Shown here in pieces: positions 5,037-18,766 of a stretch of 20,318 nucleotides of DNA. The notes under the pieces are model-generated. The model made no database searches. It was not told the origin of the DNA and saw only the letters and a program-made list of their open reading frames with translations. Numbering within the stretch: the first letter of the stretch is position 1; each line of letters begins with the position of its first letter. Source of the stretch: a virus. The position numbers and the translations under genes are program-made. Location of the stretch: the UHGV virus genome UHGV-0140021. One strand, given 5' to 3'.

Positions 5037-5387
5037 TCATTTGAGCCGTTCACGCGCAGTCTTCGCTGCGTGACACGACCAACACAGGCTTTCAAGGTTG
5101 CTGTCTTCATCAGTGCCGCCGTGGGCCTTCGCTTTGATATGGTCCACGCAGGACGCCTGCTTCACTACTCCCTGCCGAAGATGGTTCTGACACAGCCCTT
5201 TGTCGCGCTTAAGTATCCGCTCCCGTATGACTTCCCACTTTGTTCCGTATCCACGCTGCTGCCGTGATTGACCTGGCTTATAGGACTTCCAGCCTTCACC
5301 TTTGTGATTTTCACAGTAGCCAGACGGGTCTGTTGTGGTGTTCCGACAGCCGCGAACGCGACAAGCCTTCGGTGTGCGCGGTGGCAT
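5037..5387 (-). CDS. HNH endonuclease (terminase-associated)
   Basis: Cys/His-rich protein (CRVRGC...CENH...CQNH...CVDH...HGG...N...CWSCH) with an HNH motif; ATG at 5387 with GGGGAG SD; location immediately upstream of the terminase genes. Confidence 0.85.
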   Translation of the reverse strand: MPPRTPKACRVRGCRNTTTDPSGYCENHKGEGWKSYKPGQSRQQRGYGTKWEVIRERILKRDKGLCQNHLRQGVVKQASCVDHIKAKAHGGTDEDSNLESLCWSCHAAKTARERLK

Positions 5388-5452
5388 ATTCACTCCCCAA
5401 AAAAACGCATAGCATTATCGCAGGCACTCAGTGAATGCCTGCTGTAATGCCG

Positions 5453-7849: not shown

Positions 7850-8680
7850 TTACGCGATATTTATCACATCTTCACTTTTAGTCACCCGATTCAGTTGAGA
7901 GCTTGAATAACTCTCCTCCTGGAAACATTTGGTCACCAGGCTTTCATAGAATGGTTTCCAGCTATAACGCCACGTTCGGTCAGGCAGACTCGGCAACTCA
8001 GAAAAAACACCTCGATAGGCAACCGATGATTTTGGCCTGCTGTATCCCCGACCTTCACAGCGCTTACATTCTTTGTAAACCGGTACGCCCTGCAGTTCTG
8101 TCGCTTTACGGTCAATAGTCTTACCTGTGCCGCCGCACTGGCATCGCTTACTTAACTTTCCTGTGCCATGGCAGCGGGAACATAACGTATGATCAGTGTC
8201 AGTTACATCGCGCTTAACCTCAAAGTCAGATGGTGACTGTCTCAGGTCTTTTGCCCATTGTGGCAATCGCATTGTGTAATGACTTTTAGTCACGGTTTTA
8301 GTAGTTGTAAGCAACCCTTTACCACTACATTTTGGGCATGCCACGCTATCAGCGGCTGATGAGGAATAATCGTTATAGGCAAACCGGGCAAGAATACGCA
8401 TGCAGAGGGGAAACTTTTTCCCTGACGCTTTACGAATGGCCATGGGCGCATGCTCTTTCGCGTACTCCGTTAGCCAAGCTATTGACGCCTCCCTGTCCTG
8501 GCTGCTGATACCAGCTTTGCCCAGAAACATTGCCAGGCCTATCCCCGCATCGGCCTGAGTCATCCCCAGTGCAGCCATTACATCAGTAACCGTCAGTTGT
8601 TCACTGGCTGTCGCTCTGCTGGTATCTGATATGTGCATACCTTTCGGCGCAAAAAATTTCAGTACATTATCCAGGTTCAT
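7850..8680 (-). CDS. Antitermination protein Q-like
   Basis: 276-aa protein with several CxxC zinc-binding pairs (CPKC, CSRC, CQC, CKRC); last gene before the late promoter/terminator and lysis cassette; N-terminus resembles enterobacterial prophage Q proteins (from memory, not searched). Confidence 0.65.
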   Translation of the reverse strand: MNLDNVLKFFAPKGMHISDTSRATASEQLTVTDVMAALGMTQADAGIGLAMFLGKAGISSQDREASIAWLTEYAKEHAPMAIRKASGKKFPLCMRILARFAYNDYSSSAADSVACPKCSGKGLLTTTKTVTKSHYTMRLPQWAKDLRQSPSDFEVKRDVTDTDHTLCSRCHGTGKLSKRCQCGGTGKTIDRKATELQGVPVYKECKRCEGRGYSRPKSSVAYRGVFSELPSLPDRTWRYSWKPFYESLVTKCFQEESYSSSQLNRVTKSEDVINIA

Positions 8681-8695
8681 ACGGTCTCCATACGT

Positions 8696-9724
8696 TTAAG
8701 CTTTCGCAATTACGCCGATCGCCAGCGCCCGATCCATAAAACGCAGTAGCAGCTCAAGCTGCGTACCATGCTTCTGCTCGAATGCTGGTACATCGGCGTG
8801 TAACTCGTCGTGGCACTCTCTGCACAGAGGGATCACGAAGAGGTCATGGGCTTTTGTTGCTGTACCACCCATACCGTGCCCTACGATATGGTGCGGATCA
8901 TCTGCTGGCCGTCGGCAACACTCACAGGGTTGTGTTTTAACCCAGCGGGTGTACGTCTCATTTACCCAGCGGCGTCGCTTTGGCCTGAGCATGAAAGACT
9001 CTGGCGACTCCGGATCAACAGAGAGCGTTAGGATCTTCTTCGCCTTCTCCTGCACGAGGCTGGTTGCAGACGCGGAAGGCACAATGTCGCTTTCCCTCAT
9101 GACCGAGCGGATCTTCTCATCCGGAAGGCGTAGCCCCTTGTGCGCAACGCTTTCCGGAATAACATCAGCCAGGTCGTTTCTAACCATCCACCAGCACAGT
9201 TCCGGAAGCGTCAGGATATGCGACTCGGGAAAACCAGAATCACGCCGAATGACTTCCAGAATCCAGGATACCAGGTTTCCGGCCGCTATACCTGCAAGCT
9301 GTTCGGTATGCTGCCCCGACAAAGTGTGATCGCAATGCCAGCACAGGCGAATGCTTCCTGGTGGGTGCCGCATTGTTGTGAAGTTCTTGTCGTGCCACGT
9401 TGAATGTGGCCACTGGCATACAAACCGATTACTCAACCATTGCTCAAGGGAAGAAATCCCACCGGCACGCTGAATAACCCTCTCATTCTCGAAGACCTGA
9501 CGCATTACCGGATCATCAGCCAGCGGCTGAATGGCTGCCGGAACAGCCCCGGTACTGAATGACGCCATTTCTTCTGGTTCAGGCTCGAGCAGAACGCGAC
9601 CACGCATGAAGAGGTGCATCAGTTCCGCACCGGGACGGAACAGCACAATCCCCATACGATGGGCGATCTCGGGGGTAAGCAGAGCTCTCACGCGACCTGC
9701 CCCCTGGCAATGTGTTCTGCCCAC
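8696..9724 (-). CDS. DUF968-family protein (YdfU-like) with C-terminal HNH-type zinc-finger motif
   Basis: 342-aa ORF with GTG start; C-terminus CECCRRPADDPHHIVGHG...LCRECHDELH is HNH-like. Start overlaps the antirepressor 3' end, so the true start may be further downstream. Confidence 0.55.
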   Translation of the reverse strand: MGRTHCQGAGRVRALLTPEIAHRMGIVLFRPGAELMHLFMRGRVLLEPEPEEMASFSTGAVPAAIQPLADDPVMRQVFENERVIQRAGGISSLEQWLSNRFVCQWPHSTWHDKNFTTMRHPPGSIRLCWHCDHTLSGQHTEQLAGIAAGNLVSWILEVIRRDSGFPESHILTLPELCWWMVRNDLADVIPESVAHKGLRLPDEKIRSVMRESDIVPSASATSLVQEKAKKILTLSVDPESPESFMLRPKRRRWVNETYTRWVKTQPCECCRRPADDPHHIVGHGMGGTATKAHDLFVIPLCRECHDELHADVPAFEQKHGTQLELLLRFMDRALAIGVIAKA

Positions 9725-10371
9725 AGTCCACCAATCCAGCGCACGCCTTTCGCCGTGAAACGTGCCTGGCTGAATGCATGATTTGAGGTTACGGATGTGC
9801 CGGTTTTCACTTCAAAACGGCCCGCATCAATATGCTGATGCCGTGGGGTCATCGTTCCGCCAAGGCGATACATGATGTCGTTCTCAAGGAGGAATAACCG
9901 CAGATCTGGCTCTTTGGCCTTAAGCAGTTTTGCCACCTGGCGGAATGACATTGACCCACTGGCTGTACAGTACCGATCAACAAACGCTACCTTCGGCGCC
10001 GCGGCAGCCAGTTCGTTAGTCAACTGCTGTTTTTGTTCTGCAAGGTCAGCTGCAAGACGTAGGGCTTCAGAGAATGATTGAGGAATCGTCTGCTGCTGTG
10101 CCTGCTCAAGCTCCTGCCAGCGATCAACCAGACGCGCGGTAAACTCCGGCGACAGCTGCGCGACAACGATATAACTGTCCCGCTTCCCTATCAGATAAAC
10201 CGATACCGACTGATTGAGGTGATTTTTAACTTCCCCCATTGGGGGGAGTTCAATAACACCGCGCTCTGCCAGGCGTTCAATGGACCGTTTAACATGGTCA
10301 TGTCGTGATTCCACCAGCTCAGCAATATCGCTGCTGGACATGGTTAATGCTGTTGTTGCTAATTGGCTCAT
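9688..10371 (-). CDS. Phage antirepressor (Rha-like N-terminal domain, KilAC/ANT C-terminal domain)
   Basis: N-terminus ...SSDIAELVESRHDHVKRSIERL resembles Rha-family regulators; C-terminus ...AFVDRYCTASGSMSFRQVAKLL resembles the ANT/KilAC domain. Start chosen at ATG 10371 (MSQLATT) with GGAGA SD. Confidence 0.65.
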   Translation of the reverse strand: MSQLATTALTMSSSDIAELVESRHDHVKRSIERLAERGVIELPPMGEVKNHLNQSVSVYLIGKRDSYIVVAQLSPEFTARLVDRWQELEQAQQQTIPQSFSEALRLAADLAEQKQQLTNELAAAAPKVAFVDRYCTASGSMSFRQVAKLLKAKEPDLRLFLLENDIMYRLGGTMTPRHQHIDAGRFEVKTGTSVTSNHAFSQARFTAKGVRWIGGLWAEHIARGQVA

Positions 10372-10384
10372 ACTTTTCTCCATA

Positions 10385-10771
10385 TCAGGCGGCTGCACCC
10401 GCCGGTTCATATCTGCTGATCGTTATCTCTACCCGACCTTTCGGCACTACGGGTCCCCATTCCACCAGCATGCGCTTAATCTGGCTGTCGTCTTCCCAGA
10501 CACCCGCATGCGTCAGCGCGTCAAACAGGGCTTTGTTGTAATTATCGATATCCCGGCGGCGCGCATCCGGCGGGTACAGAGTGATTTCTACCGCTGCCAG
10601 TTCAGTCGATGGCTTCGGGAGACGTCGTAATTGCTCAATGATCGCCACGCAGGCAGCGCTCTGGTATTTACGAGCATCAGCGCTAATGAGGTGACGACCG
10701 GCCAGCGGCCCCTTATTAGGGGCGCGCCAGTACGTGTTCACGCTCGGAGGGAACGGGAGCACAAGTTTCAT
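10385..10771 (-). CDS. rusA: Crossover junction endodeoxyribonuclease RusA (Holliday junction resolvase)
   Basis: MKLVLPFPPSVNTYW... with DARRRDIDN and LFDALTHAGVWEDD motifs closely matching E. coli RusA; ATG overlaps the C5-MTase stop (ATGA); GGAGG SD. Confidence 0.9.
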   Translation of the reverse strand: MKLVLPFPPSVNTYWRAPNKGPLAGRHLISADARKYQSAACVAIIEQLRRLPKPSTELAAVEITLYPPDARRRDIDNYNKALFDALTHAGVWEDDSQIKRMLVEWGPVVPKGRVEITISRYEPAGAAA

Positions 10772-12702
10772 GCCACCTCCTGCTGTTGCACTGCACACAG
10801 TTCCGGAAGATTTGCCTCCACCAGCGCCCTGGCGAATGGTGGTGGTACCGCATTACCGCAGCGGGCTACCTGCTTATCTTTTGCATAGCGATTTCCACGG
10901 TAGTCCTGATCAATAACGTAACCATCCGGGAAGCCCTGCGCTTTGTAGAGTTCATGCGGCTGCAACATGCGCATTCCGATATCAACGATCTGGTATTTAA
11001 CCCCATCGATCGTTACCAGCCATTCATCGTCACTTTCCCCGCAATACGTCTCGAGAAATGTGCGTACCTCACCCACGTGTTGGCCACCAGCAGTGATTGT
11101 TGGCATTGGCACATCAAGGCGTTGCCCGTCGCGGCATGTTCCACGCAGTTTCACCAGATGAGAGGCAACTACCGCATGATGGTCGACAGTGGTCACTGAA
11201 TGCGCGGGTTCATCCATACTGACACCAGGCCCCGTATAGTTACCGCCGTAGTGTTTCGCCAGGAACGCGCTCACCGTCGCAAATTTATTTCCGCCTGCAG
11301 TAACGGTCCCCAGCGGGTTATCCAGTCGCAGCACACGCGGTTCTTGCCCAGGTCGTTCGCCATAACCCATCTGAATCAGCGTAGGCGTTACCGGTTGAGA
11401 TTTACCGCCACCACCAGCGGTGATGGTTGCGCTCGGTTCGTCTGCACGGTGGCCGACGCTGGCCCCAAACTGGCGGGCTATCACTGGCGCAACCAGACAG
11501 GCTCGGGATTGCTTCAGAATGGTATGAGCAGGTTTATCCAGCGGGCGCGGTTTCGCCTGGTATTCACTACCACCATTACCCGCCAGGAATGGCGTCAGTG
11601 CAGCCTCAACAATCCCGAGTGCATGCCCGTTCCCGCCCGGGCGTTTTGACGTGCCAGCGGTTACCGTCGGAACAGGTTCGGTAAGGGGCTGCCCGGTTGC
11701 GCCAGTGCGGAATTTTGTCAGGTGTGGAACGGCTAACGCGTAGCCGAGTTTTTTAGTAATGGTCTGTAATGGCTCATTCAGTGACTGTCCGCGAAAAGCG
11801 TCATACGCATTTTTTGAGCTCGTGTGGTTGCACTTCACAATAAACGGCGACGCACTTTCGATAACAAAGCGCTGTATGCCGCGCGCGATCCGCTTCAGAG
11901 TGTTCTCCGCCAGCGGTTTTTTGCGGTCGAAGATGGACAGGGCCGGAATATTCCAGTCGATACATTCCGCAGCGGTACGCCATGGCATCAGCCTGCCACT
12001 TTGCACCTCCAGAGACTTAGGATCCCCATGGGTAATAGCAGGCCACTGGATTGGGCAACCATCGCAACGCATAACCATGAAGAAGCGTTTGCGGATCGTC
12101 GGCGCGCCGTAATCACACGCACGTAGTTCGCGATAATCAACATCATATCCCAGCCCATCCACCAGCTTTTGTGCCTGCTCGCTACCTCTTTCGATAGACA
12201 GAAACTCACAAACCTCAGCCAGTGCCGGGTGATCAGCAGGAATGCCAGTGGACAGCATGCCGACAAATGCATTGAATGTTTCGCCAGTGCGGGCAGGATC
12301 CGGACGCATTTCATCGGCCAGCAGCGGTCCCCACGTTTTGAACTCTTCCACGTTCTCCAGCATCATCACGCGCGGTCGCTTTGCCAGTGCCCAACGCAGA
12401 ACAATCCAGGCCAGACCGCGTATCTCTTTTTTCACAGGCTTTGCGCCTTTTGCCTTCGAGAAGTGTCGGCAGTCCGGGCTAAACCATGCCAGTCCGACAG
12501 GATGACCTCCGGTGGCGGCTACCGGATCCACGTCAAATACGGATTCACAATAATGCAGTGTGTCCGGGTGGTTCGTCTTGTGCATCGCAATGGCGTTTTC
12601 GTCGTGGTTTATCGCAATATCCACGCTGCGCCCGATCGCCAGTTCAATACCCGTTGATGCGCCACCGCCACCAGCAAAGTTATCAACGATAATCTCACGC
12701 AT
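10768..12702 (-). CDS. DNA (cytosine-5)-methyltransferase, unusually long (644 aa) with a repeated TRD-like region
   Basis: C5-MTase motifs: I DNFAGGGG, IV SPDCRHFS (catalytic PC), VI ENV, VIII TIRKRFF, IX ELYKAQGFPDGY, X CGNAVPPP. A ~330-aa variable region holds six repeats of [DN]-x-P-x-x-T-[IV]-T(-A-G-G). Confidence 0.9.
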   Translation of the reverse strand: MREIIVDNFAGGGGASTGIELAIGRSVDIAINHDENAIAMHKTNHPDTLHYCESVFDVDPVAATGGHPVGLAWFSPDCRHFSKAKGAKPVKKEIRGLAWIVLRWALAKRPRVMMLENVEEFKTWGPLLADEMRPDPARTGETFNAFVGMLSTGIPADHPALAEVCEFLSIERGSEQAQKLVDGLGYDVDYRELRACDYGAPTIRKRFFMVMRCDGCPIQWPAITHGDPKSLEVQSGRLMPWRTAAECIDWNIPALSIFDRKKPLAENTLKRIARGIQRFVIESASPFIVKCNHTSSKNAYDAFRGQSLNEPLQTITKKLGYALAVPHLTKFRTGATGQPLTEPVPTVTAGTSKRPGGNGHALGIVEAALTPFLAGNGGSEYQAKPRPLDKPAHTILKQSRACLVAPVIARQFGASVGHRADEPSATITAGGGGKSQPVTPTLIQMGYGERPGQEPRVLRLDNPLGTVTAGGNKFATVSAFLAKHYGGNYTGPGVSMDEPAHSVTTVDHHAVVASHLVKLRGTCRDGQRLDVPMPTITAGGQHVGEVRTFLETYCGESDDEWLVTIDGVKYQIVDIGMRMLQPHELYKAQGFPDGYVIDQDYRGNRYAKDKQVARCGNAVPPPFARALVEANLPELCAVQQQEVA

Positions 12703-13576
12703 GGGTTACCCCCTGCATGCTGCCAACAAGACCACGCGCAATTGTAATAATTTCGCTGGTGGCCGTTCGTTCCAGCCAGAGTTGATTGATGTTGGCTTTC
12801 AGCTTGTTCTGCTGAGCCTCACTCAATACGTCAACGCCTTCCACCTGGTTAAACACCAGACCAACCTCTAGAGGCCAGATACGTGACTCAGTTTCCGATG
12901 GTATTACTGGTTCCTGGGCTGTCCGCACTGCAATTGTTTGCTCTTTACCAACAGCGAATTGAGCCAGCGCCATAAATTCCCGACCTTTTGCCTCCAGTTC
13001 TGTGCGGTTGATATAGCTGAACCGCTCACCACGCCACGACTTATCGAATACAGCTATGGCACCGGCAAAAAACGCGCTGGTGGGTTTCTGTTTTTCGTCA
13101 GCAGGTACAAACCACACAGGCAGATCGAACCCAATGCGCCCGCGAATGAATACAATGTGATCGGCATCTTCCGGCCACCACGTTTCACTCGGCGCGGCTT
13201 TTATCAGGAATACATAGCGACCGCCCTTCTCGCGCTGGGCTGCTGCGTATTTCATGATGTGCGTCATACCAGTGATCGCCTGTTTCTCGTGGTACTGCGA
13301 ACGGCTATACGGTGGGTTGCCATAGCCAGCGCCACCCAGTTCTGCCAGACGTTCAGACCAGTCCTGCGTCAGCGCGTTATCTTCGGCGGTGTACCATGCC
13401 GGGCATTTCGCGTTGTCGGCGTCAGCAAACAAGTCCAGAACTAATGGACCAAATAGCGCGTTGATCCCCCAAAAAAGCAGATCCGGTGTTCGCCACTGAT
13501 CGCCAACTTCTTTCAATTCGTGGGCTGGTTGGCTACGTAGTTCCGCCAGCGACTGGCAATATTTGTTTAACGTCAT
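12695..13576 (-). CDS. Phage N6-adenine DNA methyltransferase (Dam-like family) with ~110-aa C-terminal extension
   Basis: QWRTP...DLFADADNAKCPAWYT...GNPPYS motifs typical of phage Dam-family N6-adenine MTases; start overlaps the upstream ORF stop and its stop overlaps the C5-MTase start. Confidence 0.8.
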   Translation of the reverse strand: MTLNKYCQSLAELRSQPAHELKEVGDQWRTPDLLFWGINALFGPLVLDLFADADNAKCPAWYTAEDNALTQDWSERLAELGGAGYGNPPYSRSQYHEKQAITGMTHIMKYAAAQREKGGRYVFLIKAAPSETWWPEDADHIVFIRGRIGFDLPVWFVPADEKQKPTSAFFAGAIAVFDKSWRGERFSYINRTELEAKGREFMALAQFAVGKEQTIAVRTAQEPVIPSETESRIWPLEVGLVFNQVEGVDVLSEAQQNKLKANINQLWLERTATSEIITIARGLVGSMQGVTHA

Positions 13577-17270: not shown

Positions 17271-18098
17271 ATGTCTCAGTTAGACAGCGGTACCTTCAAG
17301 CAGGTCAAAGACCTGGTTCTTTCCGGTTATCACCTGAATGATATTCATGGCCTGGCTTGCCCGACCGCATTACTGCCAGAGGGTACTGGCGTTGAAAGCC
17401 TCGAGCGCTTTTCTCTGGAACGTTTCCGCTTTCGTGGCGAAATGACCACAACCAGTATTGACGACTTCGCACGTTATTCTAAAGGTTACGCCAGCGACAG
17501 TGAACCAGCTCGTTGCTTCATTGACGCTGACAACATGACCGCCCGTTCAGTGTTCAACATCGGCACCCTGGATAATCCTGGTCACGCCGATAACGTTGCT
17601 TCAATCACCCTGAAGAAAACCGCCCCGTTCCGCGCGTTACTGCAGATCGATGGTCAACGTCTGAAACAAAAGCAAATTGCTGAATGGCTGGAAGACTGGA
17701 GCGATTACCTGCTGGCGTTTGATGCTGATGGCAATACGATGCAGATTTCCCAGGCGGCTCAGGCTGTGCGTCGTATCACTATTCAGCAAGCAACACAGCA
17801 GGACCATGAAACTGGTGATTTCGCTGGTAAAAAATCGCTGATGCAAAGCGTTGAAGCAAGCAGCAAAGACGTAATGCCTGTGGCGTTCGAGTTCAAATGT
17901 ATGCCGTATGAAGGCCTGGGCGAACGCCGCTTTAGCTTGCGTAACAGCCTGCTGACTAGCGATGAACCCTGCTTTGTTCTGCGCATTGTCCAACTTGAAG
18001 CTCAGGAAGAAGCGATCGCCAACGAATTCCGCGATTTGCTGATCAGCAAGTTCGAAGGCGAATCAGTGGAAACTTTCATCGGTAACTTTAAAGCCTAA
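17271..18098 (+). CDS. YfdQ-like protein (DUF2303 family), 275 aa
   Basis: AAGGAA SD; length nearly identical to E. coli CPS-53 YfdQ (274 aa) and followed by an HD-domain gene as in the yfdQ-yfdR arrangement. Homology inferred from size and context, not searched. Confidence 0.55.
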   Translation: MSQLDSGTFKQVKDLVLSGYHLNDIHGLACPTALLPEGTGVESLERFSLERFRFRGEMTTTSIDDFARYSKGYASDSEPARCFIDADNMTARSVFNIGTLDNPGHADNVASITLKKTAPFRALLQIDGQRLKQKQIAEWLEDWSDYLLAFDADGNTMQISQAAQAVRRITIQQATQQDHETGDFAGKKSLMQSVEASSKDVMPVAFEFKCMPYEGLGERRFSLRNSLLTSDEPCFVLRIVQLEAQEEAIANEFRDLLISKFEGESVETFIGNFKA

Positions 18099-18137: not shown

Positions 18138-18226
18138 GAAGCGTAATTCCATTAATTATCGCCAACCGGCGAGGGATTCGTGCAACCAAAATCTGCGCGG
18201 TGCAGCGCGCCAATATGGAGAAAGAC

Positions 18227-18766
18227 ATGAGCTACATTCAGACATTTTCCGGTAAAAAATTTAACTACCTGACCGCCACAATCGACGATATCGATGTTGA
18301 GGATATCGCGACTGCTCTTTCCAACATCTGTCGATTCGCTGGGCATCTCCCAGAGTTCTACAGTGTGGCCCAGCACTCTGTGCTTGTAAGCCAGATTGTG
18401 CCGCCAGAGTTCGCCTTTGAAGCGCTAATGCACGACGCTGCGGAGGCATATTGCCAGGATATTCCGGCCCCGCTCAAAGCCTTGCTGCCTGACTACCAGC
18501 GCATGGAAACTTATATTGATGGTCTTATCCGCTTTAAATTCGGTATCCAGCTTGAGCAAGCTGCCGTCGTGAAATATGCCGATCTAACCATGTTAGCTAC
18601 CGAGCGCCGTGATCTGGAAATCGATGACGGTTCGAAGTGGGAAATTCTCGAAGGTATTCCCTGCTCTGATCTCGTTCAGGTTATTCCTCTCCGTCCTGGT
18701 CAAGCCTATGGCCTGTTCATGAATCGCTTTAACGAACTGGTGGAGCTGCGCCAATGCGCCGCATGA
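18227..18766 (+). CDS. HD-domain phosphohydrolase, YfdR-like (5'-deoxynucleotidase family)
   Basis: 178 aa from ATG 18227 (GGAGAAAGAC SD); conserved H...HD residues (AQHS, LMHDAAE) typical of HD-domain nucleotidases; same length as E. coli YfdR. Confidence 0.7.
   Translation: MSYIQTFSGKKFNYLTATIDDIDVEDIATALSNICRFAGHLPEFYSVAQHSVLVSQIVPPEFAFEALMHDAAEAYCQDIPAPLKALLPDYQRMETYIDGLIRFKFGIQLEQAAVVKYADLTMLATERRDLEIDDGSKWEILEGIPCSDLVQVIPLRPGQAYGLFMNRFNELVELRQCAA

Follow-up and report, generated by a model that had tools for sequence, protein, structure and literature searches.

How many DNA sequences can one cytosine methyltransferase read? The question is raised by a gene in the UHGV virus genome UHGV-0140021, a stretch of 20,318 nucleotides analyzed here at its full length (the window). 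A first-pass annotation had described the product as a C5-cytosine methyltransferase (C5-MTase) with six tandem repeats resembling target-recognition domains (TRDs) and had proposed a multispecific anti-restriction function. Multispecific C5-MTases are a textbook curiosity, represented by a handful of Bacillus phage enzymes with two to four TRDs. The gene and its upstream neighbor are as follows.

10768..12702, minus strand: C5-cytosine DNA methyltransferase gene, 644 aa (PF00145, E=5e-20; closest solved fold, 3g7u)
12695..13576, minus strand: Dam-family N6-adenine methyltransferase gene, 293 aa, upstream (PF05869, E=9.5e-44)

The window is a lambdoid prophage in which the C5-MTase gene sits between the replication genes and Q, with a Dam-family MTase, RusA, Ant, DUF968, and Q as neighbors. 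An 8-nt overlap joins the stop of the adenine MTase gene to the start of the C5-MTase gene, so the operon contains a second orphan MTase, and on the downstream side the C5-MTase gene overlaps RusA. No restriction endonuclease was found near the gene, including with PADLOC; the C5-MTase is an orphan enzyme in a phage early operon. Two distant relatives, one from a Burkholderia pseudomallei prophage and one from a Gemmatimonadota MAG, likewise adjoin a second MTase, and a restriction endonuclease is absent there. A tRNA scan of the window found no tRNA.

The identification of the 644-aa product as a C5-MTase is borne out by its score against PF00145 (72.5 bits, above the curated cut-off of 22) and by the full set of motifs I, IV, VI, VIII, IX, and X, which occur in order and are nearly invariant among homologues. 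Its score against TIGR00675 (54.9) lies under the cut-off of that model (100.65), and it is thus a superfamily member rather than a Dcm equivalog.

12661..12678, minus strand: motif I, FAGGGG, AdoMet binding, aa 9-14 (nearly invariant in 150 homologues)
12457..12480, minus strand: motif IV, SPDCRHFS, with catalytic Cys78, aa 75-82 (motif reading and 150 homologues)
12349..12357, minus strand: motif VI, ENV, aa 116-118 (motif reading and homologues)
12079..12099, minus strand: motif VIII, TIRKRFF, aa 202-208
10918..10968, minus strand: motif IX region, MLQPHELYKAQGFPDGY, aa 579-595
10840..10857, minus strand: motif X, GNAVPP, aa 616-621

Motif IV is atypical, with P-D-C where P-C-Q is usual, and the motif IX region contains the strings MLQPHELYKAQGFP (aa 579-592) and ELYKAQGFPDGY (aa 584-595). 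In the AlphaFold2 model the catalytic core has a pLDDT of >90, and a Foldseek search of the PDB matched the model to 3g7u, DNMT1, MET1, M.HaeIII, and M.HhaI (E values of 1e-8 to 4e-12), with 3g7u the closest solved fold, followed by DNMT1, M.HaeIII, and M.HhaI. These matches cover the catalytic fold alone, since the repeats have no confident fold. As judged from motifs and model, the enzyme is a complete C5-MTase with intact catalytic motifs and is predicted to be competent.

Between the end of motif VIII and the start of motif IX lie 370 aa, rather than the ~330 aa estimated earlier. This spacing is indeed far longer than in monospecific C5-MTases (104 aa in M.HhaI); it is 212 aa in the triple-specific M.SPRI and 276 aa in the rho11s and H2 enzymes. 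It is made up of a conserved folded segment of ~88 aa (209-296) and ~261 aa of repeats (297-557), followed by a tail.

11815..12078, minus strand: conserved pre-repeat segment within the small domain, aa 209-296, PWRTAAECIDW...SIFDRKKPLAENTLKRIARG...PFIV (pLDDT 86-98)
11719..11814, minus strand: unit 1, aa 297-328, RGQSLNEPLQTITKKLGYALAVPHL
11575..11718, minus strand: unit 2, aa 329-376, TGQPLTEPVPTVTAGTSKRPGGNGHALGIVEAALTPFLAGN
11479..11574, minus strand: unit 3, with a degenerate core, aa 377-408, PRPLDKPAHTILKQSRACLVAPVI (dN/dS 0.008)
11359..11478, minus strand: unit 4, aa 409-448, VGHRADEPSATITAGGGGKSQPVTPTLIQMGYG
11251..11358, minus strand: unit 5, aa 449-484, ERPGQEPRVLRLDNPLGTVTAGGNKFATVSAFLAKH
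11152..11250, minus strand: unit 6, aa 485-517, YGGNYTGPGVSMDEPAHSVTTVDHHAVVASHLV
11032..11151, minus strand: unit 7, aa 518-557, RDGQRLDVPMPTITAGGQHVGEVRTFLETYCG
10969..11031, minus strand: conserved tail hairpin running into motif IX, aa 558-578, EWLVTIDGVKYQIVDIG (pLDDT 76-87)

Residues S256, R271, and G275 of the pre-repeat segment are invariant in homologues, and AlphaFold2 places the strands of the tail hairpin at 562-565 and 568-571. Between these two elements lie seven contiguous units of 32-48 aa, six with a T-[IV]-T core and one with T-I-L, which share the consensus l-d-E-P-x-x-T-V-T-A-g-g around a P-x-x-T-[IV]-T core. All six copies quoted by the first-pass annotation were recovered (at aa 308, 340, 421, 461, 497, and 530; 11083-11781), but the total is seven; the copy that had been missed is the degenerate DKPAHTILKQS of unit 3 (aa 388-398; 11509-11541).

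The repeats are not a chance pattern of short motifs. The expression P..[STH][ILV][TL] occurs 7 times in the protein against 0.14 expected, with a maximum of 3 over 20,000 shuffles, and the mean pairwise alignment score of the units is 33.4, whereas shuffled units score 18.1 ± 0.85 (z=18). A DNA-level search of the gene found no unit-length repeats, so the unit duplication is ancient; the same result excludes both a recent tandem duplication and an assembly artefact. In comparison with phage Flotzy, the repeats had a dN/dS of 0.029 and the catalytic core one of 0.063, with dS saturated (1.1-1.6), and in orthologues of equal architecture the conservation of the repeats matches that of the core. 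By dN/dS, purifying selection acts more strongly on the repeats than on the catalytic core.

This result bears on whether all of the units are at work. The functional TRD could consist of unit 7 and the tail only, beside motif IX, with the upstream units surviving from past duplications as pseudo-TRDs or spacers. No unit type of the family is commoner than that of unit 7, which is nearly constant in its C-terminal position, and a forced global alignment of the family to M.HhaI by hhalign, set aside for its zero confidence over the TRD, places the M.HhaI T-L loop on that type, the penultimate one. Lange et al. are also said to have described, in 1991, inactive pseudo-domains in the Bacillus phage enzymes. 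Relics or spacers, however, would not be held as tightly as upstream units 2-5, whose dN/dS values against Flotzy (0.008-0.034, at or under that of the core, with synonymous sites saturated) are lowest in degenerate unit 3 (0.008), nor would their types be expected to be conserved between proteins sharing 45-60% identity. We therefore consider it improbable that unit 7 works alone.

Unit composition among relatives indicates how the array changes. The 121 proteins of ≥78% identity fall into 15 architectures of 5-9 units, set apart by duplications and by indels of 35-39 aa that add or remove whole units cleanly and in register; in the 605-aa homologues, for example, unit 5 is missing as a clean 39-aa deletion. 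Across 150 representatives of clusters at 50% identity, the number of units ranges from 1 to 12, and protein length follows 415 + 33n (r=0.77). Typing by average linkage (single linkage had merged all units into one cluster) gave ~290 unit types, in combinations that are unique to almost every protein, at times with shared types in permuted order (E/K, 8:2; K/B, 4:2). Individual types are nonetheless kept between proteins that are only 45-60% identical. On this sequence evidence the modules are separable, apparently removed and rearranged in nature under purifying selection. The family itself extends to >2,500 clusters at 50% identity (E<1e-30) in Enterobacteriaceae, Serratia, Burkholderia, and Gemmatimonadota.

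The same comparisons raise the question of whether one unit equals one TRD. The smallest relatives retain ~2 units, and some units may therefore be structural; together with the near-constant "A-H" unit pair at the C terminus of the family, this points to a basic small domain made of two units or more, and one unit may not correspond to one TRD. The hairpin-like units might then jointly form a single extended or composite DNA-binding domain with one specificity, or with a relaxed and near-nonspecific one, in which a change in unit number would alter affinity, processivity, or footprint and add no targets. Arrays of open repeats can gain or lose copies without harm, and a high constraint on every unit is expected if all of them touch DNA together. 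We nevertheless regard a composite domain as rather unlikely, for several reasons. First, solenoids and repeat arrays are usually predicted with confidence, whereas the repeats of the window protein reached a pLDDT of only 40-60 in AlphaFold2 with a 150-sequence alignment. Second, the many distinct and conserved unit types, their near-unique sets, and their permuted orders are unlike homogeneous structural repeats. Third, the linkers between units are rich in Gly and Pro (G+P is 20% within the repeats versus 14% elsewhere in the protein). Fourth, a single unit resembles the whole TRD core of the monospecific M.HaeIII.

The last resemblance comes from profile alignment. In local hhalign the best match of the unit profile in M.HaeIII was 226-249, with P-x-x-T-V in register, and none of 200 shuffles scored as high; the best match in the SPR, rho11s, and H2 enzymes was GEPAFTVNTIDRHGVAV, a score reached by 2 of 200 shuffles. 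This support is modest (pairwise P of ~0.01, with five targets tried), and the label of last TRD-like unit for the latter match depends on where the TRD boundaries in SPR are drawn. The description of the repeats as TRD-like has the register with M.HaeIII and the last SPR/rho11s/H2 unit on its side, but other searches do not bear it out: local hhalign of the unit profile against M.HhaI gave no TRD match, HMMER with the unit HMM gave nothing significant in SPR, rho11s, or H2, and hmmsearch of the unit profile over all PDB sequences returned chance matches (hydantoinase and LPMO) and no MTase. Structure prediction, which the first-pass annotation had proposed as a check, revealed neither TRD modules nor a solenoid in two models; the repeats were of low confidence in both, including that of the 3-unit homologue P0258 (pLDDT 41-67).

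The lack of a significant TRD match in the HMMER and PDB sequence searches and of a confident fold could also mean that the repeats do not read DNA at all and serve instead, for instance, in regulation or in protein-protein interaction, as an array accommodated at a permissive site of the methylase. This is very improbable in our judgment: the array lies precisely where a TRD is expected, between motifs VIII and IX, no other part of the protein is a candidate TRD, and the P-x-x-T-[IV]-T core is in register with the TRD cores of M.HaeIII and SPR.

The reading that we favor, and hold to be reasonably probable, is an orphan methylase of the lytic phase with multiple TRDs, probably multispecific and directed against restriction. 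It would be analogous to the enzymes of Bacillus phages, in which tandem TRDs confer several specificities (PMC8936443). M.SPRI, M.phi3TI, M.rho11sI, and M.H2I are likewise phage-encoded orphans in which a single catalytic core is combined with a lengthened VIII-IX region. Their modules are also short and contiguous, with T-[LIV] cores 30-48 aa apart (the three xT[ILV]x cores of SPR are spaced by 30 and 48 aa, and the window units by 32-48 aa), and their last unit, EPAFTVNTIDRHGVA, aligns with the window unit profile. Unlike these enzymes, whose modules have no significant HMMER similarity to the window units, the window enzyme belongs to another core subfamily, with a P-D-C-x-H-F-S motif IV and the conserved 88-aa pre-repeat segment. 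The hosts of its family are Gram-negative and beyond, unit number is higher (7 in the window enzyme and at most 12 in relatives, compared to 3-4), and diversity is far larger (~290 unit types and >2,500 clusters). Multispecificity is proven for the Bacillus phage enzymes and predicted for the window enzyme. We found no description of the window family or its specificity in the literature; it is apparently a separate, very large, undescribed family of proteobacterial and wider prophages. Against independent TRDs, twelve of them on one core would, to our knowledge, be without precedent.

Other known systems share single features. M.BssHII/M.phiBssHII and M.BceSV, set beside the window enzyme here by description, also combine several TRDs with a single core but belong to other lineages (Firmicutes); M.BceSV is borne by a prophage, multispecific, and silent in the lysogen (PMC3526280, PMC11347163). 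M.HaeIII (monospecific for GGCC and solved with DNA in 1dct and 3ubt) has a catalytic fold matched by the window model and a TRD core in register with the unit consensus, but it has one core rather than seven, an ordinary VIII-IX length, and a place in a restriction-modification system. The C5-MTase of the enterobacterial prophage CP-933R (3g7u), the closest solved relative by sequence and fold, differs in its length (376 aa) and canonical P-C-Q motif IV, and in the alignment only the core and motif IX are matched while the repeat array is unaligned. Nonspecific phage and prophage adenine MTases, such as M.EcoGII, are also orphans that broaden the protection of exported DNA (PMC12707154). In contrast to the window enzyme, they use N6-adenine chemistry and another fold class, and they achieve breadth through lack of specificity rather than stacked readers.

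We propose the following mechanism. (i) One catalytic core would bear seven short (32-48 aa) TRD-core-like modules on Gly/Pro-rich linkers. (ii) During lytic growth the gene would share the transcription of the delayed-early (nin-region) genes. (iii) The modules would dock by turns at the catalytic cleft, each reading its own short DNA sequence, and progeny phage DNA would consequently be 5-methylated at several targets and escape several host type II restriction systems. (iv) The adjoining Dam-family adenine methylase may give extra protection. We infer the independence of the units as TRDs, their distinct specificities, the timing of expression, and the anti-restriction role; the sequence suggests that the enzyme probably marks several different DNA sequences and so carries phage DNA past host restriction. 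Against an anti-restriction role, dense m5C would open phage DNA to McrBC-type modification-dependent restriction (PMC12707154). More tentatively, and as somewhat less than an even prospect, prophage C5-MTases across phyla may hold combinatorial libraries of 1-12 self-contained mini-TRDs of ~35 aa, swapped by in-register recombination.

If the units are functional TRDs, the Bacillus phage strategy would operate at a far greater scale, in prophages of Salmonella, Escherichia coli, Klebsiella, Citrobacter, Burkholderia, and other bacteria, and if each is an autonomous sequence reader, these enzymes would far exceed every other known DNA methyltransferase in multispecificity. Such a strategy could have gone unseen because routine PacBio methylomes leave m5C unreported (PMC4393132) and prophage methylases are silent in lysogens (PMC8936443, PMC3526280). 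It would bear on the ability of temperate phages and transduced DNA to get past restriction barriers between enteric pathogens and on the interplay with McrBC-type modification-dependent restriction, and it would change the reading of m5C signals that follow prophage induction. The units would also amount to a natural, minimal, and swappable DNA-reading code for C5-MTases, and a swappable reader of 35 aa would lend itself to the engineering of methylase specificity. Natural variants that differ by unit indels (5-9 units, ≥78% identity) constitute a ready-made deletion series for the multi-TRD idea; they include P0025, in which unit 5 is missing, P0117, in which units 3 and 5 are missing, and P0003, P0074, and P0076, which have additional units. 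Relatives of >900 aa had been considered as fusions with a second enzymatic domain; this was rejected, as their extra portion is an intein.

The 644-aa protein is a member of the C5-MTase superfamily by every criterion that could be tested. It matches PF00145 (Pfam, E=5e-20), and the protein nearest to it, at 98% identity, carries the annotation “DNA cytosine methyltransferase [Salmonella enterica]” and represents 1,124 member sequences. All motifs quoted in the first-pass annotation were found where it had placed them, but the gap between motifs VIII and IX, put there at ~330 aa, measures 370 aa; its first 88 aa (aa 209-296) form a family-conserved, confidently modelled segment outside the repeats. 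All six proposed repeat copies exist, but a seventh, degenerate copy (DKPAHTILKQS, aa 388-398) lies between the second and third. Motif IV (12457-12480, minus strand) reads S-P-D-C-x-H-F-S rather than the canonical G-x-P-C-Q-x-F-S, with Asp between Pro and the catalytic Cys, and this variant is near-invariant across the 150-sequence family alignment. The gene and its upstream neighbor are as follows.

10768..12702, minus strand: C5-MTase ORF, 644 aa
12695-13576, minus strand: Dam-family N6-adenine MTase (PF05869, 293 aa), directly upstream of the C5-MTase

The seven units are each 32-48 aa long and consist, in order, of a Gly-rich linker, the core [DE]-x-P-x-x-T-[IV]-T-(A-G-G), a short hydrophobic strand (h-A-h-V), and x-x-F-L-x-K-Y-x-G. 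They are far above chance expectation: 7 occurrences of the core pattern were counted where 0.14 would be expected, and mean pairwise scoring of the units gave z=18 relative to shuffles. A search of the gene at the DNA level found no repeat, indicating that the array is ancient and excluding recent duplication or artefact as its origin. In a codon-by-codon comparison with the homologue of Escherichia phage Flotzy (81% nucleotide identity), synonymous sites were saturated (dS 1.1-1.6), and dN/dS was 0.029 for the repeats (dN=0.047), 0.008 for degenerate unit 3, and higher, at 0.063, for the catalytic core. Conservation of the repeats among same-length orthologues equals that of the core. Both results indicate that every unit is held at the residue level, so that in general the units cannot be explained as linkers, relics, or pseudo-domains. 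That only the last unit is active is improbable in our view, being contradicted by the very low dN/dS values of the units upstream.

Several lines of evidence bear on whether the units are target-recognition domains (TRDs), as first proposed. They fill precisely the VIII-IX slot, and nothing else in the protein is a candidate TRD; position thus argues that they are TRD-like, and a role other than DNA reading seems very improbable. Sequence comparisons gave a mixed picture. The unit HMM had no significant match in the GenBank sequences of the multispecific Bacillus phage enzymes M.SPRI, M.rho11sI, and M.H2I (SPR, rho11s, and H2) and no methylase match in the whole PDB (hmmsearch). The more sensitive hhalign gave no TRD match in M.HhaI (verified sequence) but did give matches in other enzymes, with scores judged against 200 shuffles. 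Its best local match in M.HaeIII (sequence checked against 3ubt and 1dct) was to residues 226-249, within the TRD and with P-x-x-T-V in register (score reached by 0/200 shuffles), and its best match in SPR/rho11s/H2 was to the last unit, GEPAFTVNTIDRHGVAV (2/200 shuffles). SPR, which reportedly has triple specificity (Gunthert and Reiners, 1987), contains three such cores at intervals of 30 and 48 aa, matching the spacing of the window units. M.HhaI has a conserved T250-L251 in recognition loop II, and in M.HaeIII guanines are contacted by arginines flanking the T-V core. The window units have type-specific residues at what we take to be the corresponding flanks (−12 to −1 and +6 to +12 from Thr).

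The units behave as modules across homologues. The closest 120 proteins (78-98% identity; 570-700 aa) have 15 architectures of 5-9 units and differ by clean, in-register deletions, insertions, or duplications of whole units (35-39 aa). HMMER, run exhaustively against 1.84 billion cluster representatives, returned 2,558 clusters at E<1e-30. Among the best 150 of these, the unit HMM found 1-12 units per protein, and protein length followed 415 + 33n (n, number of units; r=0.77). Average-linkage clustering of 1,739 units at 45% identity gave ~290 types, some recurring in dozens of proteins with overall identity of only 45-60%. The type combination is near-unique to each representative, and shared types are occasionally in reversed order (E/K 8:2, K/B 4:2). 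The commonest constant element is a C-terminal pair, “A-H”; window unit 7 belongs to type “A,” and “H” denotes the PLHTITTKDRFGLVT type, whose head is absent from the window protein. The smallest family members keep ~2 units, as might be expected of a composite or extended DNA-binding array with single or relaxed specificity, but the unit types are numerous, distinct, and shuffled and no confident repeat fold was obtained, both of which count against such an array, which we consider unlikely.

Family hosts include Salmonella, E. coli, Klebsiella, Citrobacter, Enterobacter, Kluyvera, Serratia, Burkholderia pseudomallei, and a Gemmatimonadota metagenome-assembled genome (MAG). Two distant contexts were inspected. 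In both, a phage-like cluster contains the gene adjoining a second MTase, with no endonuclease nearby; orphan-MTase pairing seems recurrent.

L006 (B. pseudomallei prophage), 7863-9035: pairing of a PF01555 (N6_N4) MTase with the multi-unit C5-MTase homologue
L008 (Gemmatimonadota MAG locus), 8902-11529: pairing of a PF01555 (N6_N4) MTase with the multi-unit C5-MTase homologue

RusA is encoded near the C5-MTase in the B. pseudomallei prophage, and the PF01555 MTase of the Gemmatimonadota MAG is fused to an SNF2-related domain. Family members of >900 aa (P0130, P0184, P0202, P0215, P0231, P0241, and P0192) carry an intein with a Hint domain and, in most, a LAGLIDADG homing-endonuclease domain. 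It is inserted exactly before the catalytic Cys of motif IV (WFSPD|CFPAGT...VVHN|CKHFS), which makes the active-site Cys the +1 extein residue.

Structure prediction did not display TRD modules. AlphaFold2, run on the window protein with a 150-sequence alignment, gave pLDDT >90 for residues 1-285 and 565-635 but 40-60 for the repeats, with scattered hairpins only, and a 3-unit homologue gave the same picture. Neither model contained a confident regular solenoid, the outcome that would have spoken against the original proposal. Gly and Pro together make up 20% of the repeats, versus 14% elsewhere, and the models would fit a flexible “beads on a string” arrangement in which the units become ordered only on DNA. 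The prediction may also have suffered from repeat alignments that were out of register.

The initial interpretation of a multispecific anti-restriction methylase is partly supported, by architecture, constraint, modularity, and orphan phage context; predicted structure speaks neither for it nor against it. We consider that the protein is probably an orphan, lytic-phase, multi-TRD C5-MTase. One catalytic core would use several alternative mini-TRDs and methylate several target sequences; expressed in the lytic phase with no restriction partner, it would, together with the co-transcribed Dam-family enzyme, shield progeny DNA from several type II systems. Bacillus phage enzymes that carry tandem TRDs (PMC8936443) offer a precedent, as does M.BceSV, a multispecific prophage enzyme that is inactive in the lysogen (PMC3526280, PMC11347163). 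Dense m5C draws McrBC-type restriction (PMC12707154), a cost of this model. In its architecture, the spacing and separability of its modules, and its orphan phage context, the window protein resembles the Bacillus enzymes, but by sequence it lies outside that group, whose defining property, one target per module, is a prediction for the window protein. Our literature search found no description of the family; published Salmonella methylomes report m6A and m4C only (PMC4393132), and m5C datasets are scarce. Its interest lies mainly in scale (up to 12 modules, hundreds of module types, and thousands of clusters), and the existence of natural unit-indel variants makes the multi-TRD hypothesis directly testable.

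The mosaic lambdoid prophage that makes up the window is related to SfV, ST64B, and phage 118970_sal3 and has the gene order cI, cII-like, replication genes, Dam-family MTase, C5-MTase, RusA, Ant, DUF968, Q, lysis genes, HNH, terminase, portal, and protease. The C5-MTase start shares 8 nt with the Dam-family stop, and the end of the gene overlaps the RusA ORF start, placing it in a delayed-early operon located between the replication genes and Q. The Dam-family protein seems to correspond to the MTase half of a PAPS-reductase-MTase fusion, as its match to phrog_33262 is confined to profile positions 284-490 of 495 and the gene at this position in Flotzy encodes 444 aa annotated as PAPS reductase. 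Between Ant and Q, a 342-aa DUF968 protein (8696-9724, minus strand) has a weak HNHc_6 match (phrog_96, “HNH endonuclease”) and no PADLOC match, and there is no indication that it serves the methylase as restriction partner. In the leftward early region lie genes for a DUF2303 protein (17271-18098, plus strand) and a homologue (18200-18766, plus strand; no Pfam match) of phrog_318, “deoxyribonucleoside 5' monophosphate phosphatase,” which may have a nucleotide-metabolism role in a temperate phage. An HNH endonuclease gene (5037-5393, minus strand) immediately precedes the two terminase genes (small and large), a layout typical of HK97-like, HNH-assisted cos packaging.
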